DNA of 64,000 nt from Candidatus Aphodoplasma sp. (GTDB lineage Bacteria > Bacillota > Clostridia > UBA1381 > UMGS1253): the NCBI GenBank assembly GCA_045592745.1, contig JAZNVH010000010.1, positions 92,783 to 156,782 of the forward strand, read 5' to 3'. Shown here in pieces: positions 1 through 49,369 of this stretch (positions within the stretch are counted from its first letter, which is position 1; every line of letters begins with the position of its first letter). Made by a program: the position numbers and the translations under genes. Below the pieces are notes generated by a model that ran no database searches, had not been told where the DNA came from, and saw nothing but the letters and a program-made list of their open reading frames with translations.

Positions 1-1289
1 TTTTCCTCTATTGCCTTAATGACAACTGCTTCAACGGCAGATGCGTCAAACTTTTTATCAAGACCTTGTTCTTTACAGTAAAGGGCAGGGTCAACGTCGT
101 TTTCAACTACTGCAATTAAGATTTTCTTGCCGGCATTACGGTTAACAGTGCCGTCATTTACCATTTTTATAATACTAAAGAGCTTTTCGGCACTGATTGT
201 TAATTCGTCTATCGTCTTGCCGTCTTTTCTCAAAACGCCAATACAGTCAGTCAAAATCCACGTTGCAGCATCTTTTGCCCCGCATCCCATATTAACAACA
301 TCATCAAGAAGCTTGCTTATCCTGTGGTTTGAAATAAGCATGTCAATTTCTTTTTCGGAAATGCCTGCCAAACGGTAATCCTCAACCTTTTCATCAAGAG
401 CGGCGGGTTTGTTTGCTTTGATTTTTTCAAGCCATTCGTCGTCTATGATTATCGGCATAAGGTTTGCGTCGGGGAAGTAGCGATAATCCGCTTCAGTTTC
501 CTTGTTACGCATAGCAAAGGTTTTTCCGCTGACATCATCAAAACGTCTTGTTTCCTGCACAAGCTCTTCTGTTTCAAATTCCAAAGCATCAATGTGGCGC
601 TGCGCTTCGTAGCGGATTGCACGCTCAATTGCTTCAAATGAGCTCATGTTCTTAATCTCTGTACGTACGCCAAATGTTTCGCTTCCTTCGGGGCGAACAG
701 AAATATTAACGTCGCAGCGCATTGCGCCTTCTTCACATTCTGAAATTCCGGCAGAGCGGAACATTGATTTTAATTTGTTTAAGTAGGTTACAACCTCTTC
801 TGCGCTTCTAAAATCGGGCTGAGTTACAATCTCGATTAGCGGAACGCTGGTACGGTTAAAGTCTACATAAGAATATTTGCCACCATGGACAAGTTTGCCT
901 GCATCCTCTTCCATATGAATCTGCTTAATGCGTATATCACGACTGCCTGCTGATGTTTTAAGTGTTACGCATCCGTTGGTGCAAATAGGATGATTAAGCT
1001 GTGTAATCTGATATGCACACGGAAGGTCAGGATAGTAGTAATTCTTTTTATCAAAGGTTGTGTATCTGTTTATTTCACAGTTAAGCATAAGACCTGCTGT
1101 AACAGCAAGCTCTACAACGCGCTTGTTCATTACAGGCAGCATTCCGGGCATACCGCTGCAGGCAGGGCATACGCAGTCATTAGGCTCGTTAGCGGAGCTG
1201 TGACCGCCACACGAACAGAATATTTTTGATTCGGTACTAAGCTCAACGTGAGTTTCAAGACCGATAACCAATTCGTAATTCATAATCAT
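1..1289 (-). CDS. gatB: Asp-tRNA(Asn)/Glu-tRNA(Gln) amidotransferase subunit B (partial, runs off left edge)
   Basis: Not in the ORF track; translated by hand from ATG at 1289, overlapping the gatA stop (ATGA). It reads MIMNYELVIGLETHVELSTESKIFCSC...CPAC...FDKKNYYYPDL...IHMEEDAG...PLIEIV...DYRYFP. The frame stays open to position 3 (429 codons). Confidence 0.96.
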   Translation of the reverse strand, partial: MIMNYELVIGLETHVELSTESKIFCSCGGHSSANEPNDCVCPACSGMPGMLPVMNKRVVELAVTAGLMLNCEINRYTTFDKKNYYYPDLPCAYQITQLNHPICTNGCVTLKTSAGSRDIRIKQIHMEEDAGKLVHGGKYSYVDFNRTSVPLIEIVTQPDFRSAEEVVTYLNKLKSMFRSAGISECEEGAMRCDVNISVRPEGSETFGVRTEIKNMSSFEAIERAIRYEAQRHIDALEFETEELVQETRRFDDVSGKTFAMRNKETEADYRYFPDANLMPIIIDDEWLEKIKANKPAALDEKVEDYRLAGISEKEIDMLISNHRISKLLDDVVNMGCGAKDAATWILTDCIGVLRKDGKTIDELTISAEKLFSIIKMVNDGTVNRNAGKKILIAVVENDVDPALYCKEQGLDKKFDASAVEAVVIKAIEE

Positions 1290-2464
1290 TCACCCTTCCT
1301 TTCGGCCGCGTCTGCAAAACCAAGAAGCAGAGGCTCGGAAAAATGCTTTCCAATAAGCTGGACACCACCACTAACCATTGCAGGCACGCCAATAAGGTTT
1401 GCCAAAGAGGTGAACACGCTCTCATCAAACACCTTGCCAAAGGCTTCGTGAATATCGTACGCTTCATAAGCTGTTTTACTCATAGCAGGAGTCAAAATAG
1501 CATCGTAATTTTTCATAAGCTCTTCAAATTTTTCTGCTATTACACGGCGTACTTTTAATGATTTATTATAGCATTCTTCGTAACGGTTTTTGGAAAGAAC
1601 ATCAGAGCCATACAAAATCACTGATTTTGTCAAAAAGTTAAAGCCTTCTGTTCTTGAATTTACATATAACTCGTCAATGTCTTTGTATTCTTTGGCGCGA
1701 TGACCAAATTTAACACCGTCATAACGGGAAATATTATTGCACGTTTCTGCTGTCATAAGAATCTGCCATGCCACGTTAACAGCATCAAAAATATCAAATG
1801 AGATTTCTTCTACAACAACACCATTCTCGCGTAGTGCGCCAGCAAAAGCGTTTATGCGTTCTTTTGTCTGCTCATCTGCTTTTTCGACGAGCTCTTTTAC
1901 AATGGCGACCTTTTTGCCCGAAACATTTTCCAAGCTATAGTCATAGCTTTCGTTTCTGAGGCTCGTTCCGTCTTTTTCGTCGTGTCCTGCAATAATCTGC
2001 ATAATCTCTTTAACACCTGATGCATTTTTCGCATATACACCGACTTGCTCACCCGAAGCAGCACACGAAATTACACCATAGCGTGAAACCGTGCCATAGG
2101 TGGGTTTTAAAAAGTCGATGCCAGATAATGCGGCGCTGCGTCTTGTAGCGCCATTCATATCTACGCCAAGAGCGGCTTTTACATCGCCATCTGCAACCGC
2201 CTGTGCGGCTGCGCCTTTTAATGAGCCTTCCTGATTTTCGTAGTATGAAAATTCACCAACAAGGTCAAGACCAAACTCGCCAACATGTGTCTTTCCGGCA
2301 ACTTTATATCCTTTGCTTTCAAGACGTGTTACTGCCTCTGCGCTAAAAAGCGGCTTGAAGCCTTCAAGTATTTTAGAGCCTGCACAGCTTTGAGCGTCTT
2401 TTACTAAAATTGTATCATCAACTGCGATGTTACCATCGCCTAATTTCGTTTTATAATAATTCAT
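1286..2464 (-). CDS. gatA: GatA-like amidase-signature protein, truncated and lacking the catalytic triad
   Basis: Amidase-signature scaffold (LKPTYGTVSRYG, NISRYDGVKFGHR, SLANLIGVPA) between aspS::gatC and gatB. Likely start is ATG 2464 behind GAGGTG (track start GTG 2473). About 392 aa versus about 480 for typical GatA. Confidence 0.9.
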   Translation of the reverse strand: MNYYKTKLGDGNIAVDDTILVKDAQSCAGSKILEGFKPLFSAEAVTRLESKGYKVAGKTHVGEFGLDLVGEFSYYENQEGSLKGAAAQAVADGDVKAALGVDMNGATRRSAALSGIDFLKPTYGTVSRYGVISCAASGEQVGVYAKNASGVKEIMQIIAGHDEKDGTSLRNESYDYSLENVSGKKVAIVKELVEKADEQTKERINAFAGALRENGVVVEEISFDIFDAVNVAWQILMTAETCNNISRYDGVKFGHRAKEYKDIDELYVNSRTEGFNFLTKSVILYGSDVLSKNRYEECYNKSLKVRRVIAEKFEELMKNYDAILTPAMSKTAYEAYDIHEAFGKVFDESVFTSLANLIGVPAMVSGGVQLIGKHFSEPLLLGFADAAERKGE

Positions 2465-2474
2465 CCTGCACACC

Positions 2475-4553
2475 TCACTTTACAAGTCTTGGCACCTGCC
2501 AGCTGTCTTCACTGCGCTCGGGAGCACCTTCTAAGAGGCTCTCACGCGTGAACGGCTGATGGCGGACATCTTCGCGCAGTACATTTGTCATAGGCATAAC
2601 ATGTACCATGGGTTCAACATTTTCTGTATCTATCGTAGAAAGAATTTTTTCTTTTTCGCTCATAGCGGCAAAAATTTTCTGAACCTTATTTTCTTCTTCG
2701 CCTGAAAGGGCGATCTGGTTTAGCTGCTGTGCATTAGAAAATGTCGAGCGCTTGCTCATAGATGATTTACCTGTGTTTGATGGGCCTGATGCACGCTGCG
2801 CGAGTGCGTTTGTATTTCCCAAAAGGTGAACATCTTCAAGCTGTTGATTTGATACAAAGCTTGGCGCACCTAAAAGAAGGTCCTGAGCGTTGCCGTTTAG
2901 AGGGAATGCAATAACGTCTAAAATCTTTTCTTCATCGGTTAACAGCATTACCATTCTGTCGATACCGGGCGCCATACCTGCATGAGGCGGAGCACCGTAT
3001 TGGAATGCTGTATAAAGAGCATTAAAACGCTTTTTAAGCTCTTCCTCTGGATAACCTGCAATTTCAAATGCTTTTTTCATGATGTCTATATCATGGTTAC
3101 GAACAGCGCCCGATGCAAGCTCTATGCCGTTACCAACAAGGTCATACTGATATGCCAGAATTTCGGTAGGGTCTTTTGTAAGAAGAGCATCCATACCGCC
3201 CTGGGGCATAGAAAATGGGTTGTGTGTAAAGATTATTTCGCCTGTATCCTCGTCTTCTTCGTACATCGGGAAGTCTACAACGAAGCAGAACTCGAATGCA
3301 TCTTCGTTAATCAAATCAAGCTGTTCTTTTTTAGCAAGCCATGTGCGTATAAGTCCTGCTTTTTTCTCGGTATCATTCTTTTTATCATCACAGATAAAGA
3401 ACAGTGTTTCGCCTTCTTTTACACCTGTTAATTCAATTATTTCTTCTTTTTGTGCGTCACTTAAGAACTTGGCGATAGGACCTGCAAATATGCCATCTTT
3501 TAAAGTGATATATCCAAGACCGCCAAGACCAACCTCAAGAGATGTTGCATATTTTAAAGAATCCTCAAAGAATTTTTTTGATTTGCCCTGACAGTTTGCC
3601 ACGATTCCGCGCACGGGCTTACCCTTAAAAGCGGGGAAGTCAACGCCAGAAAAGAAATCTGTCAAATCACAGATGATAAGTGGATTTCGAAGGTCAGGCT
3701 TATCAGAGCCGTAATACATCATCGCATCGGCATATGTTATGCGGCGAAACGGCTTTGGTGTAACCTTTTTATCGGAAAATGTTTTAAATGTATCATAGAT
3801 TAAATCTTCGCAAACATCCAAAACTTCTTCTTGCGTAGCAAACGCCATTTCAAAGTCGAGCTGATAAAACTCACCGGGAGAACGATCAGCGCGGGCATCT
3901 TCGTCACGGAAGCACGGAGCAACCTGAAAATATCTGTCAAAGCCCGACACCATCAAAAGCTGTTTAAACTGCTGCGGTGCCTGCGGAAGTGCGTAAAATT
4001 TGCCCGGATGCTTACGGCTTGGTACCAAAAAGTCTCTGGCGCCTTCCGGAGAAGAAGCAGTCAAAATCGGAGTCTGCATATCCAAAAAGCCTTTTTCCTC
4101 CATTTTGTTTCTCAAATGGCGGATAATCTTTGAGCGTTTTACCAAATTATCATGGTTTTTTGGATTACGCAAATCAAGATAGCGGTATTTTAAACGAAGC
4201 TCATCCTTGCTCAGTCTTGAAGTGCGCACATCAAAAGGCAGATTATTAAGACTTTTGCCTAAAATTTCAAGAGTGTCTGCTACAAGTTCTACATTACCTG
4301 TATCAAGCTTGTAGTTTACGGTTTCTTCGTCACGCTTGCTTACGATACCTGTAACAGAAATAACTGTTTCGCGGTTTACATCCTTTACAAGCTTGTCATC
4401 ATGGATGACCACCTGTGTTACGCCTGTGTAATCACGAAGGTCGATAAAAATAACACCACCGTGGTCACGCACAACGTCAACCCAACCGGCAAGTGAAACA
4501 GTTTTGCCGATGTGCTCATCACGTATGTCATTACAATATAGGGTTCTATACAT
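2475..4553 (-). CDS. aspS: Aspartyl-tRNA synthetase (non-discriminating type) fused to a C-terminal GatC-like domain
   Basis: AspRS motifs RDHGGVIFIDLRD, LPQAPQQFKQLLM, CFRDEDARADR.PGEFYQLD, GAPPHAGMAPGIDR. After about residue 585 comes a Ser/Gly/Asn linker, then a GatC-like tail (IDTENVEPMVHV..TNVLREDV...LLEGAPERSEDSWQVPRLVK). Confidence 0.95.
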   Translation of the reverse strand: MYRTLYCNDIRDEHIGKTVSLAGWVDVVRDHGGVIFIDLRDYTGVTQVVIHDDKLVKDVNRETVISVTGIVSKRDEETVNYKLDTGNVELVADTLEILGKSLNNLPFDVRTSRLSKDELRLKYRYLDLRNPKNHDNLVKRSKIIRHLRNKMEEKGFLDMQTPILTASSPEGARDFLVPSRKHPGKFYALPQAPQQFKQLLMVSGFDRYFQVAPCFRDEDARADRSPGEFYQLDFEMAFATQEEVLDVCEDLIYDTFKTFSDKKVTPKPFRRITYADAMMYYGSDKPDLRNPLIICDLTDFFSGVDFPAFKGKPVRGIVANCQGKSKKFFEDSLKYATSLEVGLGGLGYITLKDGIFAGPIAKFLSDAQKEEIIELTGVKEGETLFFICDDKKNDTEKKAGLIRTWLAKKEQLDLINEDAFEFCFVVDFPMYEEDEDTGEIIFTHNPFSMPQGGMDALLTKDPTEILAYQYDLVGNGIELASGAVRNHDIDIMKKAFEIAGYPEEELKKRFNALYTAFQYGAPPHAGMAPGIDRMVMLLTDEEKILDVIAFPLNGNAQDLLLGAPSFVSNQQLEDVHLLGNTNALAQRASGPSNTGKSSMSKRSTFSNAQQLNQIALSGEEENKVQKIFAAMSEKEKILSTIDTENVEPMVHVMPMTNVLREDVRHQPFTRESLLEGAPERSEDSWQVPRLVK

Positions 4554-4584
4554 GATATATTCCTCCTGTAATAGTGTGCTAAAA

Positions 4585-4799
4585 AATAAAAGTCCCGAAA
4601 ATATACAAAAGTATATTTTCGGGACGAGTAAACTAACATTTAACCCGCGGTGCCACCCGCATTGATGCTAAAAGCATCCGCTTTTTATATGAAGCTGTAA
4701 ATAAACGGAGTGTTCCCAAACTTACTACTCATCTCAAATGCGCTTTCAGTCCATGACGCATTCTCCCTTTCAGACTTTCCACAAAAGCCGAGTCTCCGT
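4585..4799 (-). promoter_or_regulatory. T-box riboswitch upstream of aspS::gatC-gatA-gatB, probable Asn (AAC) specifier
   Basis: On the - strand: T-box GCGGGTGGCACCGCG (4660-4646), stem III GATGCT/AGCATC, and terminator GTCCCGAAAATATAC-TTTT-GTATATTTTCGGGAC plus a U-tract. Apical AGGGAG/ACTGAAAG elements and basal stem ACGGAG/CTCCGT are present, with AAC-A at 4714-4711. The UGGC bulge implies a G73 tRNA (Asn/Asp compatible). Confidence 0.88.
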
Positions 4800-4804
4800 A
4801 AGTT

Positions 4805-4833
4805 ATTATAGCAAAAAATGTTTTTATTGTCAA
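4805..4833 (-). promoter_or_regulatory. SigA-type promoter for the T-box/aspS operon
   Basis: Perfect TTGACA-17 nt-TATAAT on the - strand just upstream of the T-box leader. Confidence 0.85.
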
Positions 4834-4900
4834 CATTATTTTGCCTGATTTTTTTGATATTATTAAAGTTGTTTTATTGGGACATTTTTGTATTTTAACC

Positions 4901-11549: not shown

Positions 11550-13391
11550 ATGATAGATAAAATTGACAAAATTTTAATGTCGGTACAAAAGCCCGTGCAG
11601 TATACGGGCGGAGAGCTTGGCATGGTAAAAAAAGATGCAGACAGCGTTGATATTCGCTTTGCATTTTGTTTTCCTGACAATTATGAAGTGGGTATGTCGC
11701 ATCTTGGTATGAAGATACTTTATCATCTTTTAAATGAGCGCAATGATACCTACTGTGAGCGTGTTTTTGCTCCGTGGCCAGATATGGAAGCAAAGATGCG
11801 CGAAAACGATATGAAGCTTTTTTCACTCGAAACTAAAACGAGTGTGTGCGATTTTGACATAGTAGGTTTTACACTTATGTATGAGCTTTGCTATTCAAAC
11901 GTTATAAATATGCTTGATTTGGCGGGAATAAAAATAAAAAGCAGCGATCGCGGTGAAGGTGAGCCGTTTGTATGTGCAGGCGGTGCGTGTGCGTATAATC
12001 CCGAACCGCTTGCCGACATGATAGACTTTTTTATCATGGGTGAGGGTGAAGAGGTTTTGCCCGAGGTTATGGACGCTTACAGTGAATGGAAAAAGAGTGG
12101 ACAAAAACGCGAAAAGTTTTTAGAATCTATATGCGAAATTGAGGGGATATACGTACCTGCATTTTATGATGTGACGTATAATGAAGATAAAACTATCGCA
12201 TCATTTGAGCCAAATCGCGCGTGTGCAAAAAAGAAAATAAAAAAGCGCATAATCCACGATTTTGATAACTCATATTTTCCAGAGCAGCTTGTTGTTCCGT
12301 ACGCAGAAACCGTTCACGACAGAGTGACACTTGAAATTTTCAGAGGATGTATACGCGGTTGCCGTTTTTGTCAGGCGGGATATGTGTATCGTCCCGTAAG
12401 AGAAAAAAATGCCAAAAAGCTTGTAGAGCTTGCAAAAAAGCTTGTATCGGCAACGGGGTATGAAGAAATTTCTCTTTGCTCTCTCAGTACAAGCGATTAC
12501 ACACAGCTTAGCGAGCTTACCGAAGGGCTTTTGGATGAAATCTGTAAAAAGAAGGTTAATTTATCACTTCCTTCACTTCGTATTGATAATTTTTCGTTAG
12601 ACCTTATGGAAAAGGTGCAGACTGTGCGAAAAAGCGGTATTACCTTTGCGCCCGAAGCGGGAAGTCAGCGCCTTCGTGATGTTATAAAAAAAGGCGTTAC
12701 CGAGCAGGATTTGCTTGATTCTGTTTCGCTTATATTCGGTGGCGGTTGGACAAATGTCAAGCTCTATTTTATGATAGGTCTTCCGACTGAAACGAGTGAG
12801 GATATTCTGGGAATTGGCGCGCTTTCGTCAAAGGTGCTTGACGAGTATTATAAGCTGCCAAAAGAAAGCCGACATGGTGCGCCACGTATAAGCGTAAGCG
12901 CATCAACCTTTGTTCCAAAGCCATTTACGCCTTTCCAATGGGAAAGTCAGGATAATATTGAAACTATATATGAAAAACAAGGTATAGCAAGAAGTTCGAT
13001 AAAATCAAAGCAGATAAAATTCAGTTGGCACGATGCCGAAACAAGCTTTCTTGAAGGCGTGTTTGCCCGAGGAGACAGAAGACTTTGTGATGTACTTATT
13101 GCGGCGCATAAAAATGGCTGTAAGTTTGATGGTTGGAATGAATATTTTGATTTTGAAGCATGGCAAAAATCGTTTGAAGAGTGCGGCGTTGATGCGACAT
13201 TTTATAATCAGCGCAAGCGCAGCTTTGACGAAATACTTCCATGGGACCATATTGATGTCGGCGTAAGTAAGACGTTTTTGGAAAAAGAGGCGCGTCTTGC
13301 ATACGAAGAAAAGCTTACTCCAAACTGCAGAGAACAGTGCACAGGCTGCGGTGCTGCATGTTTTAAAGGGGGTATATGCGTTGAAAGGTAA
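11550..13391 (+). CDS. TIGR03960-family B12-binding radical SAM protein
   Basis: FPDNYEVGMSHLG, CxxxCxxC (RGCIRGCRFCQ), FAPEAGSQRLR and C-terminal PNCR..C..CGA. Start ATG 11550 is inferred. Confidence 0.9.
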   Translation: MIDKIDKILMSVQKPVQYTGGELGMVKKDADSVDIRFAFCFPDNYEVGMSHLGMKILYHLLNERNDTYCERVFAPWPDMEAKMRENDMKLFSLETKTSVCDFDIVGFTLMYELCYSNVINMLDLAGIKIKSSDRGEGEPFVCAGGACAYNPEPLADMIDFFIMGEGEEVLPEVMDAYSEWKKSGQKREKFLESICEIEGIYVPAFYDVTYNEDKTIASFEPNRACAKKKIKKRIIHDFDNSYFPEQLVVPYAETVHDRVTLEIFRGCIRGCRFCQAGYVYRPVREKNAKKLVELAKKLVSATGYEEISLCSLSTSDYTQLSELTEGLLDEICKKKVNLSLPSLRIDNFSLDLMEKVQTVRKSGITFAPEAGSQRLRDVIKKGVTEQDLLDSVSLIFGGGWTNVKLYFMIGLPTETSEDILGIGALSSKVLDEYYKLPKESRHGAPRISVSASTFVPKPFTPFQWESQDNIETIYEKQGIARSSIKSKQIKFSWHDAETSFLEGVFARGDRRLCDVLIAAHKNGCKFDGWNEYFDFEAWQKSFEECGVDATFYNQRKRSFDEILPWDHIDVGVSKTFLEKEARLAYEEKLTPNCREQCTGCGAACFKGGICVER

Positions 13392-14049
13392 ATATACATA
13401 CAGATTTCGCTATGAAAAAACGCCCGAGGTAAGATACGTTTCGCATCTTGATTTTGTCAGAGTATTAAACCGCACTGTGCGTCGTTCGGGACTGCCAATA
13501 ACGTATACAGAAGGTTTTAATCCGCATCCTGTAATGATGGTTGCGATGCCGCTTTCTGTTGGTGTTACCAGCGAGGATGAGTATATCGATATAGATTTTG
13601 ACGAAAAAGTAGCTGAGCAGGAAGTGCTAAAGCGCTTTAATGATGCGTTTGGCGGTGGATTTATCGCTACGGCGGTAAAATGTCTTGGTGAAGGCGATTT
13701 AAGCCTTAAAAAGCTTGACGAGGCAAGATACAGAGTAATCGTAGAGCAGGAAGGAACGGACATCCCTGACATAGATGCTTTTTTGTCGCGTGATACGATT
13801 GTTGTATCTAAAAAAAGTAAGAGCACAACAAAAGATGTAGATATTAAAAATGATATAAAATCGCTCAAAATTGTGAGCACAGAGGGAAATTATATCACGT
13901 TTGATATCGATGTTCCTGCAGGAAATGAATATAATTTAAAACCGGAGCTTGTTATACATGCGATGGACAAGTATCTTGATGGTTTTAATGTTAAATTTGT
14001 ACTCGCTCACAGAACTGCACTTTTATGCAAAGGACAAAGATTTATATAA
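13381..14049 (+). CDS. TIGR03936-family radical SAM-associated protein (DUF2344)
   Basis: RYVSHLDF..VLNRTVRRSGLPI.YTEGFNPHP. TTG start at 13381 behind GGGGGT; overlaps the upstream gene end. Confidence 0.88.
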   Translation: MKGKYTYRFRYEKTPEVRYVSHLDFVRVLNRTVRRSGLPITYTEGFNPHPVMMVAMPLSVGVTSEDEYIDIDFDEKVAEQEVLKRFNDAFGGGFIATAVKCLGEGDLSLKKLDEARYRVIVEQEGTDIPDIDAFLSRDTIVVSKKSKSTTKDVDIKNDIKSLKIVSTEGNYITFDIDVPAGNEYNLKPELVIHAMDKYLDGFNVKFVLAHRTALLCKGQRFI

Positions 14050-14088
14050 GCTTTATATAAATATAAATTAAACTTAGGAGGAATAAAA

Positions 14089-14475
14089 ATGGTAAAAGGA
14101 ATTGAACATGTAGCTATATTTTCAAAGGATTCAAAGGCACTAAGTGATTGGTACAAAGAGATGTTTGATTTAAAAATCGTATATGATAACGGCAAGGGAA
14201 CATACTTTTTGGCTTTTGAGAGCGGCGATATGATTGAGTTTTGTATGACAGATGTGCTTGAAGACAAAAAGCATGAAAAGACATCGGGTATTCGCCATTT
14301 TGCATTCTCAATTGATGATGCTGATTTTGAGCCTATGGTTAAAAAGTTAAAGGACTCGGGTGCAGAGGTTGTAGCTGATGTTGTGGCGAACGCAAAGGGA
14401 ATCAAGACATTCTTTTTCCGTGATATAGACGGAAATGTATCACATCTTATTGTAAGACCTGAGCCGCTTGTATAA
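14089..14475 (+). CDS. VOC/glyoxalase family protein
   Basis: IEHVAI, GIRHFAF and FFRDIDGN motifs; 128 aa. Confidence 0.88.
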   Translation: MVKGIEHVAIFSKDSKALSDWYKEMFDLKIVYDNGKGTYFLAFESGDMIEFCMTDVLEDKKHEKTSGIRHFAFSIDDADFEPMVKKLKDSGAEVVADVVANAKGIKTFFFRDIDGNVSHLIVRPEPLV

Positions 14476-14493
14476 GCAGTCTGGAGGAAAAAC

Positions 14494-15132
14494 ATGGAAG
14501 CTATAAAAAGATGGCGCAGAGAGTGCGTTGCAAAGCAAACTATAGAAGCTTTGAAAGATAAAGGGTATAATGCTGTTTATGTTGAAAATATTGATGCTGT
14601 ACGTGCTGTAGTAGCGTCGCTTATACCTCAGGGAGCGAGCGTGGCTGTTGGAGGAAGTGTGACACTTAATGAAACGGGTGTGCTTTCGGACATACAAAGC
14701 GGTGCATATAATTTTATTGACCGCTATAATCAGGCAAGCAGTGAGGATACATACAAAAAGCTTCGCGAAAGCTTTTTTGCAGACTTTTTTGTGACAAGCA
14801 CAAATGCGATTACAAAAAACGGCGAGCTTATAAATATTGACGGTACGGGCAACAGAACGAGCGCAATGGAGTTTGGACCAAAAAACGTAATTGTTATTGC
14901 GGGCGCAAACAAAATTGTGCGTGATATAAATGAAGGCATAGTGCGTGTAAAACAGATTGCACCCATGAATGCTAAGCGTTTAAATCGCTCCACTCCGTGC
15001 ACAGTTGACGGAAAATGCCATGAATGTACGTGCGAGCAGAGGATATGTAACATCACAAGTATCATACATAACTGTTACAGATTTCCGGGTAGGATTACAG
15101 TGATTTTGGTTCCTGAAGAGCTTGGTTATTAA
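14494..15132 (+). CDS. LUD/LutC (YkgG)-domain protein
   Basis: VAVGGSVTL, TSTNAIT..GELINIDGTGNR, AGANKIV and the C-terminal PC...G.C..C.C..RIC cluster. Confidence 0.85.
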   Translation: MEAIKRWRRECVAKQTIEALKDKGYNAVYVENIDAVRAVVASLIPQGASVAVGGSVTLNETGVLSDIQSGAYNFIDRYNQASSEDTYKKLRESFFADFFVTSTNAITKNGELINIDGTGNRTSAMEFGPKNVIVIAGANKIVRDINEGIVRVKQIAPMNAKRLNRSTPCTVDGKCHECTCEQRICNITSIIHNCYRFPGRITVILVPEELGY

Positions 15133-15191: not shown

Positions 15192-17822
15192 TTATTTCAA
15201 AGCTGCAATGCTTTCTTCAACCTTTTTAAGCATTTCGGCATATTTTTTGCCCTTAGCGGCCTCTGCTTCTACAACAGCGGCAGGCGCTTTGTCGGTAAAG
15301 CCTTTGTTTGAAAGCTTGCTTTCGACTCTTTTTATCTCACTAATAAGAGTTTGCTTTTCCTTTTCAAGACGCGTCAGCTCTTTTTCTTTGTCAACAAGCT
15401 CTTCCATAGGAAGATATATGCTTGCGCCTTCAACAACGATGCATACACTGCCTTCCGATATGCCGCCGTTGTCTTTTACAACGCTCACGCCCTGAGCGCT
15501 TGCAAGCTTTTCGAAAAATCCGATTCCGCTTGAAAATACGTCTGTAAGCTCTGTTACAATTATAAGACTGCACTTCTTTGAAGGCGGAACATTCATTTCG
15601 CTTCTTGTATTACGGATGCTCTTGATTGCCTCCATAATAAGTGACATATTTTTCTCATCGGCTGCAAAATTAAGCTTTTCATCATATTTTGGCCAGTCGC
15701 TTATCATAATGCTTTCGCCAACGTGTGGCAAATGTTGCCATATTTCTTCAGTGATAAAGGGCATAAACGGATGAAGTAGTTTCATTGTTTCTGACAAAAC
15801 GTATGTGAGTACATACTGAGCAGTTATACGCGACGGATTTTCAGTGTCAAACAGACGCGGTTTTACAAGTTCGATATACCAGTCGCAATAATCGTCCCAT
15901 ATAAAGTCGTAAATCTTTGAAAGTGCAACGCCAAGCTCGAATTTGTCAAGATTGTCGGTAACTTCTTTTACGACGTTATTAAACTTACTTATAATCCACT
16001 TATCTTCGAGTGCAAGCTCGCTCGCATCGGGAAGTTTGTTATCATTGATTTCAAGATTCATCAAAACAAAACGCGATGCGTTCCATATCTTATTTGCAAA
16101 GTTACGGCTTGCCTGTACCTTTTTATCTGAAAAACGCATATCGTTTCCTGGCGCATTACCTGTTATAAGTGTAAAACGAAGTGCGTCTGCACCATATTTT
16201 TCGATGATTTCGAGCGGGTCAATACCGTTTCCAAGCGATTTTGACATTTTGCGTCCCTGCTCATCACGAACAAGACCATGTATAAATACATGCTTAAACG
16301 GCTCACTCTTCATATGCTCTGCGCTTGAGAAAATCATTCTTGCAACCCAGAAGAATATGATATCATATCCCGTTACGAGTACTGATGTGGGGAAGAACTT
16401 TTCAAGCTCGGTTGTCTTATTTGGCCAGCCAAGTGTCGAAAACGGCCATAGTGCTGATGAAAACCATGTATCAAGAACGTCGGGGTCCTGCTTTACGCTG
16501 CCCCCGCACTTGGGACATACATCTACGGGTGTTTTTGAAACAACTGTTTCGCCGCACGCGTCGCAGTAATATGCGGGTATTCTGTGTCCCCACCAAAGCT
16601 GACGCGAAATGCACCAGTCGTGCACATTTTCCATCCAGTTTAAATATGTCTTTGTAAATCTTTCGGGAACAAACTGTGTTTTTCCTTCTGTTACGATTTT
16701 TATAGCCTCTTTTGCAAGCGGCTCCATTTTAACAAACCACTGCTTTGATGTGATAGGCTCAACTGTTGTGCCGCAACGATAGCACTGACCCACATTGTGT
16801 GAATGTGGCTCGATTTTTACAAGAAAACCACCTTCTTCAAGGTCAGCTACAATCTGTTTTCTTGCTTCGTAACGGTTAAGTCCTTCATATTTTCCACCAA
16901 AGGAGTTTATAGTTGCATCGTCGTTCATAACCTTTATTTGCTCAAGGTTATGACGAAGACCAACCTCAAAGTCATTCGGGTCATGCGCAGGTGTAATTTT
17001 AACTGCGCCTGTACCAAAATCTTTGTCAACGTATTCGTCGGCAATAATCGGTATCTCACGTCCAACAAGCGGAAGCACAAGCATCTTTCCAACAAGGTGA
17101 GTATATCTTTCGTCATCAGGATGAACTGCAACAGCAGTATCTCCCAAAAGTGTTTCAGGACGTGTTGTTGCGATTGTAAGATATTCGTCAGAATCTTTTA
17201 CATAATATCTTATGTGCCAGAAATTTCCTTCGTGCTCTTCATACTCAACCTCAGCGTCAGAAAGCGCCGTAGCACAGCTTGGACACCAGTTTATAATTCT
17301 GCTGCCCTGATATATAAGTCCTTTTTTATAAAGGTTTACAAATACCTCAAGAACGGCATCGGAGCATCCTTCGTCCATAGTAAAGCGCTCGCGGTCCCAG
17401 TCGCATGAACAACCGATTTTTTTAAGCTGGCTGATAATTCTGTCGCCGTATTGTTTTTTCCAGTCCCATACACGCTCCAAAAACGCCTCACGTCCAAGGT
17501 CGTAGCGGGTTTTGCCTTCTTCTTTTCGAAGAACTTCTTCAACCTTTATCTGTGTTGCGATACCTGCGTGGTCAGTGCCGGGAATCCAAAGAGCCTCAAA
17601 GCCTGACATACGCTTATAACGAATAAGGATATCCTGAAGTGTTTCGTCAAGAGCATGTCCCATGTGAAGCTGACCGGTAACGTTCGGGGGAGGAATTACA
17701 ATTGTGAAAGGCTCTTTGTCGCTCTTTTCATCTGCATGAAAAAAGCCATTTTCCGTCCAGAATTTGTATAATCTGTCCTCAAACTGGGATGGTTCATAAG
17801 TTTTAGCAATATTGTCATTCAT
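15192..17822 (-). CDS. valS: Valine--tRNA ligase
   Basis: [38 protein letters not shown] and KMSKS motifs; C-terminal coiled coil. Confidence 0.98.
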
Positions 17823-30021: not shown

Positions 30022-30299
30022 ATAAACGCAGTGATGCGGAATAGTAGGCAAAATACTTTCGCCAAAAGAGAGATGCCGGTTGGTGCAAGGCATTGGGAAA
30101 GATTTGCCGAACTCACCGCGGAGCGGCTGCCGTGAAATGTTTGGAGAGTAGGGGCAGACGGGAACTCCCGTAACAGAGTAAAGATGTGTTGGCATCTTGA
30201 GGGCATCCTTTGTGGATGAAGAAGAGTGGTACCGCGGAAGCAAAAAAGGATTTTACGCTTTCGTCTCTTTGAATAAACGAAGAGACGAAAGCTTTTTTT
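30022..30299 (+). promoter_or_regulatory. Leucine T-box riboswitch (specifier CUC)
   Basis: Stem I with AGUA/GAA loop E, AGAGAG bulge, GGTGCAAG loop and GAA-CTC-A at 30109-30115. T-box AGAGTGGTACCGCG at 30223-30236. Terminator GCTTTCGTCTCT/AGAGACGAAAGC plus T7 (30257-30299). The UGGU bulge matches the A73 discriminator of tRNA-Leu. Confidence 0.95.
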
Positions 30300-30353
30300 G
30301 TAAATTGAAAAAGCTTTGGGAAATGAGCTTTGAAAGGGAAGGGGTTTTATCCA

Positions 30354-31742
30354 ATGAGAAAAATCAACGTATCGGACATTACATTAAAAAAACTGGCACA
30401 AACAAGAGAGGTTGCACTGCTATTTCGTGAAAAGACAGCGATTGCTGCGTGCGCAGACGCTCTCGGCGTAGATGCTATTGAACTTGCGGCAATTAAAAAT
30501 TTGCGTGAAGATACTATCGTTTATAAAACGATTGCAAAAAATATTCAAAAAAGTATTGTTGCAATTCCGGTTGGTTTTTCTTTTGATGACGTGGCAAATG
30601 CGTGGGAATGTGTAAAGGAAGCCGCAAAACCGAGACTGCAGGTAGAAGTGCCCACATCAACAGTTCAGATGGAGTATATGTATCATCTTAAAGCAGACAA
30701 AATGATAGCAAAAATCGCCGAGCTTGTTACAGAAGCGAAAAAGCTTTGTGATGATGTAGAGCTTGTTGCAACTGATGCTACACGTGCTGATGAAGAGTTT
30801 TTGATTGAAGCTGCAAAGACAGCCGAACAAAATGGCGCAAAGATTATTACAATCTGTGACGATGCGGGTGTGGCTTTGCCTGAGGAAATTGCAGAGCTTG
30901 TTTCTAAAGTAAAGCAGGCTGTAAATGCAGATGTTTATGTGCAGGTATCAGACAGTATCGGTATGGCAGTATCGGCGGCGGTATCTGCAATCGGAGCGGG
31001 CGCAGATGGACTAAAATGTGCAATGGCAGGAGAAGATTCGCTTTCTATGGGCGCTTTGGCAAAAATGGTTTCAGCACGCGGAGATGCGATTGGCGCTTCG
31101 GTAGCTTTGGAGAATACAAAAATTCACGCAAGTATCGAGGATATGCTTTCTAAAATCAATCATGCAGGATATGAAAGTGCAGATGACGTTAGCGAGAAAA
31201 AGAAGATTTTGCTTGATGAGGATAGTACACTTTCTGATGTGGCATATGCGGCAAATGTGCTTGGTTATGATTTGTCCGACGAGGATAATGGAAAGGTTTA
31301 TAAGGCACTTATGCAGGTTTGTGAGAAGAAAGGCTCTGTCGGAGTAAAAGAATTTGAAGCACTTATTGCAAGCAGTGCAATGCAGGCACCGTCAACATAT
31401 CATTTTGAAAGCTATTCGACAAGTTGTGGTAATTTAACAAGTGCAATGTCACAGGTAACGCTAAGATGCGGTGATGAAATTCTTTGCGGTGTAAGCACGG
31501 GCGACGGTCCGATTGATTCGGTATTTCGTGCAATAGAGCAAAGCATAGGATATCATTATGAGCTTGACGATTTCCAGATTCAGTCGGTAACAGATGGCAA
31601 GGAAGCGCTTGGCTCTGCCTTGGTAAAGCTTCGCGTAGGCGGCAAGCTCTATTCAGGTAACGGCAGCTCTACTGATATTGTTGCAGCAAGTATAAGAGCA
31701 TACATAAATGCGCTTAACAAGATTGTGTTTGAGGAGGCGTAA
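30354..31742 (+). CDS. LeuA (2-isopropylmalate synthase)-like pseudoenzyme with intact C-terminal regulatory domain
   Basis: Colinear with LeuA (AAKPRLQV, LCDDVEL..TDATR, GDGPIDSVF.AI, SGNGSSTDIVAASIRAYINALNK), but LRDGEQ reads LKKLAQ and HCHND reads QVSDS. Start ATG 30354 behind GAAGGGG. Confidence 0.88.
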   Translation: MRKINVSDITLKKLAQTREVALLFREKTAIAACADALGVDAIELAAIKNLREDTIVYKTIAKNIQKSIVAIPVGFSFDDVANAWECVKEAAKPRLQVEVPTSTVQMEYMYHLKADKMIAKIAELVTEAKKLCDDVELVATDATRADEEFLIEAAKTAEQNGAKIITICDDAGVALPEEIAELVSKVKQAVNADVYVQVSDSIGMAVSAAVSAIGAGADGLKCAMAGEDSLSMGALAKMVSARGDAIGASVALENTKIHASIEDMLSKINHAGYESADDVSEKKKILLDEDSTLSDVAYAANVLGYDLSDEDNGKVYKALMQVCEKKGSVGVKEFEALIASSAMQAPSTYHFESYSTSCGNLTSAMSQVTLRCGDEILCGVSTGDGPIDSVFRAIEQSIGYHYELDDFQIQSVTDGKEALGSALVKLRVGGKLYSGNGSSTDIVAASIRAYINALNKIVFEEA

Positions 31743-31744
31743 GG

Positions 31745-34204
31745 ATGAAACTGACCTTTTCTACAAAAAACGTAAACAGGGCATCGTTTTTTGATACCTG
31801 CCGTTATGCATACGATTACGGATATGCAGGTTTTGAAATTTATGATGCAATTAAAGAGAGAAAACAACACTATGACAGCATTCTTCGAAGTGAACGCACA
31901 GCAGACTCAAAAAGAAAGCTTTTTAACCGTGGACTTAACGTTTCTGCATTGGTGTATCCGTATCCGATAGAAAGTAGCGAAGCGACACCTGAATCTGTTG
32001 TAAAATATGTTGATATGGCGACAAATGCGGGAATTGAGCGCGTTATTTTGCGTATCGAGGAAAAGACTTCAAACGATGTGCTTTATGAAAAACTCAGTGA
32101 GGCTGTCAAAAAAGCCGGAAAGGCTGATGTTCAGATATTGTTTGAAACATCGGGCTATCTTGCAAAAACTGAGAATGTAATTGATATTATAAACTTTTTT
32201 TCATCTGCGGCAATAGGTGTTTCGTGGAATACGCGTGAAACGTATTTTAAAGCGGGCGAGAGTGCAGACACAACCATTAAAACACTTGGCGCGTATATAA
32301 AATATGTGCGTCTTGGTGATATGAAAGATGGCAAAAGCGTCTTAATCGGTGAGGGAGAGCTTCCTGTTACAAATGTTATTAATGCGCTTTCTTCACTTAA
32401 TTTTGACGGATATATTTGCGTGGCGTGGAATGAAGAAATTCAGGATGCTGACATTGTACTTACGCATTTCACAAATTATATTGCTGGACTTTCTCGAAAG
32501 AAAAAAGAAAAAGACGGTGCATATTATAATCGCTCAAAGACGGGTACATTTGTATGGAAAAAATACGATGTTATTGATGCAACTTTTTCCGATGTGCTTG
32601 ATACGATGGTTGAAAAGTACCCTGACCAGTATGCGTTTAAATATACAACGCTTGATTACACAAGAACGTATTCGCAGTTTCGCCGTGATGTAGATGAATG
32701 TGCGGCGGCACTTATATCGCTTGGCGTAAAGGCGGGCGACCAGGTTGCTATATGGGCGACGAATGTGCCGGCGTGGTTTATTACCTTTTGGGCAACGACA
32801 AAAATCGGCGCAGTACTCGTTACAGTTAATACCGCATATAAAATTCATGAGATTGAATATCTTTTAAAGCAGTCGGATACGCATACGCTTGTTATGATTG
32901 AGGATTGTAAGGATATTAATTATATAGAAATTATCGAGGAGCTTTGTCCCGAACTTAAAAGCATAAATCCAGGAGAGCCGCTTTATTCAAAAAATCTTCC
33001 GTTCCTGCGAAATGTAGTTACAGTCGGTTTTTCAATGGATGGATGTCTTACATGGGAACAGATGCTTGAGCGTTCTGCACTTGTGCCTCAGCAGGAGGTG
33101 CGTCGCAGAGCCTCGCTTGTAAAGCCCGACGATGTTTGTAATATGCAATATACATCGGGCACTACGGGATTTCCAAAGGGCGTAATGCTTACGCACAGAA
33201 ACATTGTCAACAACGGAAAAACCATTGGTGACAGAATGGATTTGTCAACAGCAGACCGTATGATGATTCAGGTGCCGATGTTCCATTGTTTTGGTATGGT
33301 GCTTTCCATGACATCAATGATGACACATGGCGGTACACTTTGTCCAATGCCATATTTTTCGCCAAAGTCATCACTTGCATGTGTAAACGATGAACACATA
33401 ACCTGCTTTAATGGTGTACCGACTATGTTTATAGCAATGTTTAACCATGCCGATTTTGCAAAGACGGACTTTTCGTATATGCGTACGGGAATTATGGCGG
33501 GAGCAAACTGTCCGGCAGATTTGATGCGTCGTGCGGCAGATGAGATGAATATGCGTGAGATTATTTCTGTATATGGTCAGACCGAGGCTTCGCCCGGATG
33601 CACAATGGGTGAGGTAAACGAAGATCTTGACCACAGAGTTGAAACTGTTGGAAGTGCATTTCCCGGTGTTGAATGTAAGATTATTGACCCTGAAACAGGC
33701 GAGGAACTACCCGATGGTGAGAGCGGCGAATTTGTTGCGCGTGGCTTTAACATTATGAAGGGCTATTATAAAATGCCTGAAGCAACTGCACAGACAATTG
33801 ACGCAGACGGATGGCTTCATTCGGGAGATATTTGCTGTAGAACAAGCGATGGATATTATAAGGTTACAGGACGTCTTAAAGATATGATTATTCGTGGAGG
33901 CGAAAATCTTTACCCGCGTGAGATAGAGGAGTTTTATCTTACACACCCGAAGGTGCGCGACGTGCAGGTAGTAGGTGTGCCTGACGAAAAGTACGGCGAA
34001 GAGTGCTGTGCGTGGATTATTCTTCATAAAGGTGAAGAGTCTGATGAAAACGAGATGCGCGAGTATGGTAATGCTTCTATTGCACGCCACAAAGTGCCAA
34101 AGTACTTTGTATTTGTTAAAGAATTTCCAATGAACGCTGCAGGCAAAATTCTAAAATATAAGATGCGTGATGAGTCAGTGGAGATTTTAGGATTAAAAAA
34201 GTAA
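31745..34204 (+). CDS. Fusion: degenerate xylose-isomerase-like TIM barrel plus AMP-forming acyl-CoA synthetase
   Basis: The N-terminal ~255 aa follow the sugar-phosphate isomerase/epimerase pattern (YAGFEI, LIGEGELP, FDGYI). The C-terminal part has intact ANL motifs YTSGTTGFPKG, YGQTE, WLHSGD, GRLKDMIIRGGEN and AGKILK. Confidence 0.9.
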   Translation: MKLTFSTKNVNRASFFDTCRYAYDYGYAGFEIYDAIKERKQHYDSILRSERTADSKRKLFNRGLNVSALVYPYPIESSEATPESVVKYVDMATNAGIERVILRIEEKTSNDVLYEKLSEAVKKAGKADVQILFETSGYLAKTENVIDIINFFSSAAIGVSWNTRETYFKAGESADTTIKTLGAYIKYVRLGDMKDGKSVLIGEGELPVTNVINALSSLNFDGYICVAWNEEIQDADIVLTHFTNYIAGLSRKKKEKDGAYYNRSKTGTFVWKKYDVIDATFSDVLDTMVEKYPDQYAFKYTTLDYTRTYSQFRRDVDECAAALISLGVKAGDQVAIWATNVPAWFITFWATTKIGAVLVTVNTAYKIHEIEYLLKQSDTHTLVMIEDCKDINYIEIIEELCPELKSINPGEPLYSKNLPFLRNVVTVGFSMDGCLTWEQMLERSALVPQQEVRRRASLVKPDDVCNMQYTSGTTGFPKGVMLTHRNIVNNGKTIGDRMDLSTADRMMIQVPMFHCFGMVLSMTSMMTHGGTLCPMPYFSPKSSLACVNDEHITCFNGVPTMFIAMFNHADFAKTDFSYMRTGIMAGANCPADLMRRAADEMNMREIISVYGQTEASPGCTMGEVNEDLDHRVETVGSAFPGVECKIIDPETGEELPDGESGEFVARGFNIMKGYYKMPEATAQTIDADGWLHSGDICCRTSDGYYKVTGRLKDMIIRGGENLYPREIEEFYLTHPKVRDVQVVGVPDEKYGEECCAWIILHKGEESDENEMREYGNASIARHKVPKYFVFVKEFPMNAAGKILKYKMRDESVEILGLKK

Positions 34205-37029: not shown

Positions 37030-40000
37030 CTATCCGAGAAGGTCTTCAAGTGACATCTGCGAGCTTGCCTGCATTCCGTTAAAGCAACCACTTTGTTCGA
37101 GCGAATCGAGTGCAGTTTTACTGATTTTTGTTCTCCTGTGAAGGTCTTCTATCGAGTGGAAAATGCCCTTTTCACGCTCTTCGCATATTGTAGTAGCTTG
37201 TGCAATGCTTACGTTTGGCAGACTTGAGAGCGGGGGAAGAATTTTATCGCCTTTGGGCAAAAAGTTCTTTGAGTCTGACTCATACAAATCCACCGGCAAA
37301 AAGTCAAATCCGCGTGCATACATTTCGCGGCAAAGCTCAAGTGTAGTGTATAAATCCTTGTCTTTTTGCGTTGGGAGAGGAATGTTTTTTATATTCTTCA
37401 TTGCACTAAGCACTGTTTCCATTCCATGACACATAATGCTTGCATCAAATGCGCCAAGTGCGCGTATCGTAAAGTATGCACAGTAATATGCGATAGGGTA
37501 GTGCACTTTGCAGTAAGCGATACGAAAAGCCATCATTACATATGCAACCGCATGTGCTTTTGGGAACATATACTTTATTTTGTTACACGAATCGATATAC
37601 CACTGCGGAATGTCGTGTGCTTTCATCTCAATTTCGTCGTCACTGCTAAGGCCTTTTCCCTTACGAACCTTTTCCATTATTGTAAACGCAAGTTTTGGCT
37701 CAAGTCCCATGTGTATAAGATAAATCATTATATCATCACGGGTACATATAGCCTCTGAAAGAACAATCTCTCCGCTTTGAATATAGTCCTGAGCATTGTT
37801 TGTCCAAACGTCCGTACCGTGTGAAAGTCCCGATATACGAAGAAGCTCTGAAAACTTTGTTGGTTTTGTATCGACGAGCATTTGACGAACAAAGTTTGTA
37901 CCAAATTCGGGCACGCCAAACGTACCGACATCGCTTCCGATATCGTTAGGGGTAACGCCAAGTGCTTCTGTATTTAAAAACAGCGAAAGTGTAGGCTTGT
38001 CATCGAGTGGAATTTTCTTTGCGTCAATTCCGGTCAAATCCTCAAGCATTCTTATAACCGTCGGGTCATCGTGTCCGAGTATATCAAGCTTTAAAAGGTT
38101 ATCGTGTATAGAATGATAGTCAAAATGTGTAGTTATAATTGTACTGTCGGCATCGTCGGCAGGGTGCTGTACGGGACAGAACTGATGTATATCATTTGCC
38201 TTTGGCAAAATGATTACACCGCCCGGATGCTGACCCGTTGTGCGTTTTACGCCGGTACAGCCGAGCGAAATGCGTTTGATTTCAGCATTATGAGCAACAA
38301 TTGAGCGTTCATCAAAATATTTTTTTGCATATCCAAAGGCTGTTTTTTCAGCGATTGTGCCGATTGTTCCTGCACGAAAGACATGTCCTTCGCCAAACAG
38401 CTCTTCTGTATACTTATGCGCGACGCTCTGGTATTCACCCGAGAAGTTAAGGTCGATATCAGGCTCTTTATCGCCTGCAAAACCGAGAAATGTTTCGAAT
38501 GGAATGTCATGTCCGTCTTTTGCATAATTTTCGCCGCAAATTGGACATATCTTGTCTGGAAGGTCACAACCAGATAAACCCGAGCCGTCCGTGATAAACT
38601 CACTGTGTTTACATTTTTTGCAAATATAATGCGCCGGAAGAGCGTTAACCTCTGTAATTCCCGATAAAAATGCAACAAAAGATGAGCCAACAGAACCACG
38701 CGAGCCAACAAGATATCCGTCAGATAGGGACTTGCTCACAAGCTGCTGAGCAATTTTATACATAACTGAAAATCCGTATGTGGTAATTGATTTAAGCTCT
38801 TTATCCATGCGCTGTTTTACAATGTCAGGCAGCGGCTCACCATATATTTCCTTTGCCTTTTCGTTTGACATATTTATTATATCCTCCTGAGCGCCTTCAA
38901 TACTCGGCGGATACGTTCCTGAGCGCACGGGTGCAAGCTCCTCGGTCATCTCACTTATAATATTTGGATTTGCTACTACAACCTCGTATGCAAGCTCGGG
39001 CTCAAGATAGTCAAATTCATCAAGCATTTCCTGGGTTGTGCGAAGGTATAACGGCGCCTGAAAATCGGCATCATCAAAGCCTTTTCCAGCCATTAATACA
39101 CGGCGAAAAACCTCGTCCTCAGGATCCAAAAAGTGAACGTCACCCGTAGCAACGGTGAGCTTGCCATGTTTTTTTCCAAGAGCGATAATTTTTTTATTAA
39201 TATCCTGTAAATCTTCTTTTGAGCCTACCTGACCATTTCTTAGCATAAACTCATTGTTTCCAAGAGGCTGAATTTCAAAATAGTCATAAAATGCGGCAAT
39301 ATTGTCGATTTCCTGCGCACTGCGGCCTGAAAAAATTGCCTGATAAAGCTCGCCTGACTCACACGCGGAACCAATAATTAAGCCTTCGCGGTATTTGTTT
39401 ATGAGGCTTTTTGGCATACGCGGTGTGCGATAAAAATAGTCAAGATGCGATGCAGAAATAAGCCTGTAAAGATTTTCAAGTCCGACAGGATTTTTTGCAA
39501 GTATGATTATATGATGTGACGGTATGCCGCGCACATCAATTTTATTTCCAAAACACGTGTTTAGCTCTCGTACGTCACTTACGCTCATTTTTGAGAGCGC
39601 TTCGAGCATTTTTTTAAATATATTAGCCGTTGCAAGGGCATCATCGACAGCTCTGTGATGATTGTCAAGAGTTACTTTTAAATGCTTTGTAAGATTGTTT
39701 AATTTGTGGTTTTTAAGCTCGGGATAAAGCTTTCTCGCAAGCGAAAGTGTGTCAACATAGCACTCTGAAAAGTTTTTGCCCATTCTTTCAAGACTCGCAC
39801 GTATAAAACCTGTGTCAAAATTTGCATTATGAGCAACAAGAACACAGCCTTCGCAAAAGCGCATAAAGTCGGTTACGGCTTTTTCTTCTTTCGGCGCACC
39901 CTTTACCATTGAATCATTGATTCCAGTAAGCTCGGTGATTTTTTGCGGTATTGGCACTGGAGGCTCTACAAAGGTGGAAAAAGAGTCTACAATTTCGCCT

Positions 40001-42128: not shown

Positions 42129-42164
42129 AAAAATCAAATCCTTATTATATAATCGTGGTTACTT

Positions 42165-43313: not shown

Positions 43314-43335
43314 ATAATCACGTCCTTAAATACTT

Positions 43336-44487: not shown

Positions 44488-44519
44488 TTTACACAACCTT
44501 CTTTTGTTTTTATTTAAAG

Positions 44520-45347: not shown

Positions 45348-45387
45348 AAGATACCTCCGCTTACGATAAATATTTTAAATGCACATC

Positions 45388-46125: not shown

Positions 46126-46158
46126 AAAAACCTCCGCCCATAAGCTTTATACAGGTTA

Positions 46159-46713: not shown

Positions 46714-46770
46714 AATAATTTCCTCCTTGAATGTTTGTTTTATTAAAATTTTATGTGTATATTTTCTGAT

Positions 46771-47583
<813 letters not shown>

Positions 47584-47594
47584 TTATTTTACCA

Positions 47595-48497: not shown

Positions 48498-48615
48498 TTG
48501 TCATCAATCCTTTCGATATATAAATTGTTTTTTATCTAAAATAAAGCGGCCTTTGCGTCTTTTCGCAAAAGACTTAAAAGACCGCCGTAATACTGTTTTT
48601 GTAAAAAATTAAATT

Positions 48616-49356: not shown

Positions 49357-49369
49357 TTTAAATAGCACC

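Follow-up and report, generated by a model that had tools for sequence, protein, structure and literature searches.

A GatB subunit altered at Lys88 and Asp274 is paired with a predicted catalytically dead GatA in an aspS-gatC operon of Clostridia

Introduction

In the amidotransferase GatCAB, the textbook example of such coupling, a long hydrophilic ammonia tunnel links a glutaminase to a tRNA-modifying kinase, and how ammonia is carried and gated in this tunnel is still debated. Here we describe an operon in a stretch of DNA from Candidatus Aphodoplasma sp. (contig JAZNVH010000010.1, positions 92,783 to 156,782 of the forward strand; the full 64,000 nucleotides (nt) are called the window), which encodes aspartyl-tRNA synthetase (AspRS) fused to GatC, an amidase-signature protein without the catalytic triad (GatA') and GatB. 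The prefix Sa denotes residue numbers of Staphylococcus aureus GatB or GatA.

The closest described systems are the bacterial GatCAB complexes (S. aureus 2DF4/2F2A/3IP4, A. aeolicus 3H0L, T. maritima 3AL0), whose GatB subunits are 38-42% identical to that of the window. The window system resembles them in the GatB fold, in the Mg/ATP/transamidase residues and in having GatC and a GatA-fold subunit alongside. It differs from them in that GatA' is devoid of the Ser-cisSer-Lys triad, the Gln-binding residues and ~60 N-terminal residues, that GatB carries K88C, D274N, R78K, F82Y, G145S and Q231H, and that GatC is fused to AspRS. The Asn-transamidosome, which consists of non-discriminating AspRS (ND-AspRS), tRNAAsn and GatCAB (T. 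thermophilus 3KFU, P. aeruginosa 4WJ3), likewise brings AspRS and the amidotransferase together on tRNAAsn; here the two share an operon, but in the window subclade the link is covalent and the GatB 3_10 turn is shorter by two residues. Bifunctional AspRS/GatC proteins (NCBIfam NF009460, PRK12820) have the same order, AspRS then GatC. The window protein falls outside this family (454 bits, cutoff 1379) and is probably, judging from these scores, an independent fusion.

GatA homologues that do not act as glutaminases have been described in another context. Tse8, a GatA-like type VI secretion system effector of P. aeruginosa, has no glutaminase activity, replaces GatA in binding to GatB and GatC and is toxic inside the canonical complex (10.1101/733030). 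Its Gln-binding residues are divergent, as in GatA'. Unlike Tse8, a toxin that impairs the complex and whose triad is intact, GatA' is native, vertically inherited and without the triad. Yeast GatFAB with a truncated GatF N-terminal domain uses free ammonium with impaired glutaminase and sometimes beats the full-length complex (PMC4027206); this case differs from the GatA' clade in being engineered and in vitro, at 20 mM NH4Cl, with GatA otherwise intact. NAD synthetases (PMC3376133) offer an analogy, one synthetase family having members both with and without a functional glutaminase module, but fold and reaction are different, and the glutaminase domain is absent there whereas here a dead subunit is retained. 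In the literature searched, we found no description of a native GatA partner without the triad.

Results

The window begins with 4.85 kb that form a single minus-strand operon, in the order leader, aspS-gatC fusion, gatA' and gatB (Table 1), and the gatB start codon overlaps the GatA' stop codon. The gatB product scored 513.7 bits on the GatB equivalog model NCBIfam NF004012 (cutoff 338) and 456.8 bits on TIGR00133 (cutoff 314.8), contained the Pfam domains GatB_N (PF02934) and GatB_Yqey (PF02637), and matched GatB chains in the PDB down to E 1e-117. An AlphaFold2 model of it (predicted local distance difference test, 82; predicted template modelling score, 0.72) matched 3ip4_B and 2f2a_B with a Foldseek probability of 1.00, so the aligned GatB positions can be treated as homologous. 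By homology, then, this product is GatB, the kinase/transamidase subunit; its full-length form is P0001. The fusion protein scored 740 bits on the AspRS model NF001750 and 53.1 bits on TIGR00135 for GatC (cutoff 47.1), with Pfam domains tRNA-synt_2, GAD and GatC (PF02686). Its GatC domain comprises residues 604-691 (nt 2481-2744).

The minus-strand translation from the ATG at 1289 contains NYYYPDLPCAYQITQ and EADYRYFPDANLMP, and the stretch with the Cys-containing motif reads NYYYPDLPCAYQ. A first-pass annotation of this DNA had picked out two altered GatB motifs, YPDLPCAYQ and DYRYFPDAN, had equated them with S. aureus K88 and E272/D274, and had held that the catalytic metal ligands and Zn cysteines are kept. 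Translation and HMMER alignment to S. aureus GatB 2df4_B (E 4.7e-96, with the residue mapping confirmed by counting) bear out all three statements. Two conserved hydrophilic residues of GatB are exchanged, Sa K88 for Cys and Sa D274 for Asn. Each motif (the first as YYYPDLPCAYQ) was found in 119/120 of the closest homologues, which are 85-100% identical and come from metagenome-assembled genomes (MAGs) of Ruminococcaceae/Clostridia, so the changes are not sequencing noise. Sa K88 is reportedly an ammonia-tunnel residue (Nakamura 2006, Zhao 2012). Residues 88 and 274 are possibly on the ammonia path, 274 as a candidate.

The catalytic residues of GatB are unaffected. Sa E10, H12, K79, E124, E125 and E150 are intact in the window and in every dead-GatA' locus (defined below), and the window protein has the motifs GLETHVEL (H14 = Sa H12), HMEEDAG (E124/E125) and PLIEIV (E150) as well as the four Zn cysteines of the CxC...CxxC motif. 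E125, the proposed gate, is unaltered.

The adjoining GatA' is, as read from its sequence, catalytically dead through loss of both the triad and the Gln-binding residues. It still matches the amidase family PF01425 at 1.2e-55 and GatA structures at about E 1e-58, while its score on TIGR00132 (273.5 bits) is below the equivalog cutoff of 481.1. The three triad columns read D/L/A in the window protein and D-or-E/L/non-Ser in most relatives. The column of catalytic Lys79 holds Asp or Glu in 31/31 GatA' rows (28 distinct loci) as against Lys in 58/58 canonical GatAs, the cis-Ser is absent in 28/28 dead-GatA' loci, and the nucleophile Ser is gone in most of them and still present in 5. Equivalents of the Gln-binding residues Y309, R358 and D425 (roles according to 10.1101/733030) are W, A/V/T and S/N across GatA'. 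Compared with canonical GatAs, GatA' is ~60 residues shorter N-terminally, has a 10-aa C-terminal loop deletion and has replaced ~40 residues that are >= 90% conserved in GatA. The ratio of nonsynonymous to synonymous substitution rates (dN/dS) was 0.05-0.15 for GatA' (with dS > 0.7, that is, saturated) and 0.04-0.07 for GatB. Both proteins are therefore under purifying selection, and GatA' is a subunit retained without catalytic function rather than a pseudogene. Two new conserved features mark the dead pocket in the GatA' proteins of the window and of L010-L033, L042 and L057: an acidic residue (Asp, sometimes Glu) at the old Lys79 position, and an Arg that invariably follows the old IR motif (giving RR).

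To relate GatB positions to the state of GatA, we scanned one genome per GTDB species with the GatA' alignment. The scan gave 80 loci, with GatA' relatives grading to canonical GatAs, and the triad columns and the adjacent GatB were extracted from each. The dead set consists of 26 scan loci, the window and L001 (28 in total), and the intact set of 28 loci with a triad-intact GatA and an adjacent gatB. The tabulation separated the two sets sharply. Position 88 was non-Lys in 28/28 dead-GatA' loci (C 14, A 6, N 3, T 3, G 2) and position 274 was Asn in 26 and Glu in 2 of them, whereas the intact loci had K88 in 27/28 and D274 in 28/28.

We then scanned all 409 aligned GatB positions for those >= 90% conserved in canonical GatBs and <= 20% retained in GatA' partners. 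Six sites mark the clade: R78K, F82Y, K88x, G145S, Q231H and D274N/E. Position 78 is R in 100% of canonical GatBs and K in 26/28 dead-partner GatBs, and position 231 is His in 28/28. Of the three positions flagged in the first-pass annotation, 88 and 274 are therefore real clade markers, two among six, and 272 shows ordinary variation; the Ala at 273 is confined to the AspRS-GatC fusion subclade. Within subclades the codons turn over (Cys88 TGT/TGC; Ala88 GCC/GCT/GCA; Asn274 AAC/AAT) at saturated dS. The residue at 88 differs between subclades of the dead-GatA' clade, yet is always small and uncharged. Because each subclade holds its residue despite synonymous codon changes, selection within subclades is indicated and free drift at 88 is disfavoured; the retention fits a need for 'no charged side chain' or a weak size constraint.

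The variation of these positions in GatB at large was assessed by searching 1.84 billion representatives of 50%-identity clusters and aligning the best 150 with S. aureus GatB. Among these nearest representatives, position 88 was K in 132/149 (otherwise Q7, N3, S2, A2, T1, R1, M1), position 272 was E in 99 and D in 50, position 273 was P in 142, and position 274 was D in 140 and N in 7. Cys at 88 was not seen among the 150 outside the dead-GatA' clade. The term near-invariant, used in the first-pass annotation, holds in a qualified sense: K88 and D274 are mostly conserved, and E272D is a normal variant. GatB of Aquifex, partnered with an active GatA, likewise reads DYRYFPDPD. Across the representative clusters the association of non-K88 with non-D274 was weak (3/17 vs 6/132), and no general coupling of 88 and 274 is therefore claimed. 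On the short contigs of P0121 and P0128, the visible portion of gatA encodes GatA'-type C-termini; at P0266 and P0257, no gatA adjoins gatB. Four GatB representatives are far above 480 aa (P0122, 1090 aa; P0135, 955 aa; P0223, 724 aa; P0172, 589 aa), a length that may reflect fusion to another subunit or domain.

A neighbour-joining tree placed the GatBs of dead-GatA' loci in one monophyletic group. The labels of the MAGs that hold the 26 GatA' scan loci are Acutalibacteraceae, Oscillospiraceae, Eubacteriales, Clostridia and Candidatus Copromorpha, as well as Eggerthellaceae (two), Lachnospiraceae (one) and Spirochaetes (one); the sources include ruminant (deer, goat) gut, termite gut and an anaerobic reactor. 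The gene order of the operon is kept across at least 26 species. The AspRS-GatC fusion is restricted to the window subclade, and gatC is free-standing in deeper lineages. The two loci in Eggerthellaceae-labelled (Actinomycetota) MAGs, L027 and L028, have a Clostridia-type gatC-gatA'-gatB arrangement, with an upstream aspS match in L027 only, and share the same GatB signature (K78, Y82, A88, S145, H231, N274); their operons were either acquired horizontally or mis-binned. A separate branch, characterised by T88 and FPNPE, comprises L042 (Spirochaetes) and L057 (Lachnospiraceae, termite).

Changes at 88 or 274 were also found beside a full-length, triad-intact GatA, in 4/4 outside lineages tested: K88Q in L005 (P0124), K88A in L091 (P0152), K88N + D274N in L007 (P0263) and D274N in L093 (P0189). 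Sister to the dead clade is L005, with the same gene order, aspS-gatC-gatA-gatB. The case of L007 rests on one MAG, whose GatA has relatives at no more than 56% identity. We considered whether L007 is an independent loss of glutaminase and ruled this out: catalytic Lys79 corresponds to the K in (A/G)(I/V)KDN, and L007 is triad-intact. The Lys column of ASK(M/I)L reads K/R/H/A among 120 canonical GatAs and hence is not the catalytic Lys.

The operon leader bears on which tRNA the system serves. Its T-box-like element, GGGTGGCACCGCG, scored 47.1 bits on the Rfam T-box model (RF00230; gathering threshold 93; local E 2.6e-9) and its Stem I is atypical. In an alignment of seven leaders, GGGAACAC is conserved in the window clade, with AAC as putative Asn specifier. 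In L021 (135.5 bits) and L029 (99.5 bits), the T-box upstream of aspS is canonical, exceeds the gathering threshold and has AAC as its specifier. Given this specifier in related operons, the window operon is most likely Asn-dedicated; we suggest from these leaders that uncharged tRNAAsn is its most likely inducer and Asn-tRNAAsn its most likely product. The GatB 3_10 turn, which reads or discriminates the U1-A72 pair in S. aureus (PMC2811023), has a two-residue deletion (Sa K183-M184; window ~735-745, minus strand; residues 183-186, ISEC-EEG) that was found only in the AspRS-GatC fusion subclade (the window, L001 and L011-L018). In the other 60 kb of the window, we found no asnS, glnS, asnA/asnB, glnA, amtB or tRNA genes.

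Table 1. Features of the GatA'/GatB operon in the window (own residue numbering unless marked Sa).
Feature	Position (nt)	Strand	Description and basis
operon leader	4563..4842	-	TTGACA-17-TATAAT promoter, T-box-like element, 15-bp perfect terminator hairpin followed by a U run
aspS-gatC fusion (692 aa)	2475..4553	-	bacterial-type AspRS with GAD domain and C-terminal GatC domain
GatA' (392 aa)	1286..2464	-	amidase-signature protein without catalytic triad; TIGR00132 below cutoff, alignments
GatA' Asp16	2417..2419	-	catalytic Lys79 position (IAVDDT vs canonical AIKDN); triad columns
GatA' Leu82	2219..2221	-	cis-Ser154 position (GGSSGG to EGSLKG); alignments
GatA' Ala106	2147..2149	-	nucleophile Ser178 position (GSDTGGSIR to GVDMNGATR); alignments
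gatB	1..1289	-	429 of 474 codons inside the window, rest beyond the edge; ATG at 1289
GatB Lys81	1047..1049	-	Sa R78, clade-signature substitution; position scan
GatB Tyr85	1035..1037	-	Sa F82, clade-signature substitution; position scan
GatB Cys91	1017..1019	-	Sa K88, codon tgt; HMMER alignment to S. aureus GatB
GatB Ser148	846..848	-	Sa G145, clade-signature substitution; position scan
GatB His232	594..596	-	Sa Q231, clade-signature substitution; position scan
GatB D274-A275-N276	462..470	-	Sa E272-P273-D274, codons gac gca aac; HMMER alignment

Discussion

We favour, with a probability of roughly 0.55, the reading that the operon encodes an ammonia-dependent, Asn-dedicated amidotransferase with a dead GatA', in which residues 88 and 274 were replaced since coupling to a glutaminase was gone. 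The fused AspRS-GatC, GatA' and GatB would amidate Asp-tRNAAsn. With the native A subunit dead, the lineage would have to source its ammonia otherwise, free ammonia being the simplest supply, and it could be drawn from solution in gut, rumen and digester habitats. NH4Cl replaces glutamine in vitro for this amidotransferase family, and a weakened GatA active-site scaffold can raise NH4Cl-driven activity (PMC4027206). In such a scheme, the charged Lys88/Asp274 pair would have served glutaminase-coupled ammonia delivery and would have given way to small neutral residues once the coupling was lost, as a consequence rather than by coincidence; the changes at 88 and 274 are plausibly such a consequence. 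Ammonia might enter via the former GatA pocket, acidic at the old Lys site, or directly at GatB. A more specific version is that the relic pocket of GatA' is an ammonium-capture entrance to a neutralised tunnel (K88 to a small neutral residue, D274 to Asn, Q231 to His), with Asn-tRNAAsn made from environmental ammonia and AspRS tethered through GatC. This picture we put forward only tentatively.

Several observations weigh against the favoured reading. Since the dead-GatA' GatBs are monophyletic, the association of 88/274 with dead GatA' amounts to one evolutionary event. Changes at these positions accompany an intact GatA in every outside lineage tested, and K88Q with an intact GatA in the sister lineage L005 means that the loss of Lys88 may predate that of the glutaminase. 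The five residue identities at 88 within the dead clade also fit simple relaxation, and E272D is an ordinary variant found in one third of GatBs. A second, canonical gatA may exist elsewhere in these genomes, and no RNA-seq runs containing the locus were found. The first-pass annotation had taken the tunnel changes as independent support for a new nitrogen source and had named the same substitutions, if common beside an intact GatA, as evidence to the contrary. Such substitutions do occur, as K88Q, K88A, K88N + D274N and D274N, and K88 is retained in 27/28 intact loci. That interpretation is therefore borne out in part: positions 88 and 274 mark the dead-GatA' clade, but the support is not independent, since it amounts to a single event and is not statistically separate from the finding on GatA, and similar changes are tolerated beside intact GatA.

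Relaxation deserves the most attention among the other explanations, although we consider it unlikely. It holds that Lys88 and Asp274 became unconstrained after the glutaminase died and that those found there today contribute nothing adaptive to ammonia entry. The stepwise decay of GatA', seen in the loci that retain the nucleophile Ser, would agree with it, as would the range of residues at 88 (C, A, N, T or G across the clade, and N/S/A inside the P0121 lineage alone). Relaxation accounts less readily for a residue 88 that is held within subclades through saturated synonymous divergence while its codons turn over, that never reverts to Lys or Arg, and that is accompanied by N274, H231 and K78 essentially fixed in the clade. 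A further explanation, which we regard as improbable, is that the substitutions have nothing to do with the nitrogen source and represent tolerated lineage variation or an aspS-linked specialisation for Asn. About 11% of the nearest representative clusters are without K88 and 6% without D274, and the four substituted lineages with intact GatA, among them the aspS-linked sister L005 that is already K88Q, speak for tolerance. The full six-site combination and Cys88, however, were seen only with dead GatA', and specialisation for Asn fails for L007 and L091, neither of which is aspS-linked.

That the operon is a decaying, non-functional paralogue, with Asn-tRNA made via AsnRS, we judge very improbable. 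The ~40 conserved residues lost from GatA' would be expected of decay, but dN/dS is 0.04-0.15 for gatA' and gatB, the GatB catalytic residues are invariant in the 28 loci, and gene order is kept in at least 26 species. The promoter, T-box-like leader and terminator are present, and the gatA'/gatB start/stop overlap suggests translational coupling.

What these loci provide is a widespread natural lineage with GatB, GatC and a dead GatA scaffold. Gut bacteria of Oscillospirales type account for it in 26 or more species-level genomes, and copies of the system also occur in MAGs labelled Eggerthellaceae, Lachnospiraceae and Spirochaetes. Automatic annotation currently lists the proteins as plain GatB and 'amidase'. 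As a natural experiment, the lineage separates GatB residues required solely for glutaminase-coupled delivery (candidates 78, 82, 88, 145, 231 and 274) from the catalytic ones. If the ammonia-dependent reading is true, asparagine decoding in these organisms hinges directly on ammonia supply.

Additional observations

Outside the operon, the minus strand of the window carries housekeeping genes at 15192-17822, 37030-41049 and 41079-49368, which encode valyl-tRNA synthetase, PolC and an rpsB-tsf-pyrH-frr-uppS-cdsA-dxr-rseP-ispG cluster. Four minus-strand open reading frames gave no Pfam match (49577-51907, 776 aa; 54609-55124, 171 aa; 14007-14495, 162 aa; 63061-63531, 156 aa). In the L005 locus, a ZMP/ZTP riboswitch (58.7 bits) lies at 13170-13250, 5' of an IMP cyclohydrolase gene. 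On the plus strand of the window, a strong T-box (30022-30271, 131.5 bits), whose specifier is CUC (Leu), lies 5' of two genes at 30330-34204. The first is LeuA-like (HMGL-like and LeuA_dimer domains), and the second encodes an unusual 819-aa protein that joins a xylose-isomerase-like TIM barrel to an AMP-binding (adenylate-forming) enzyme.

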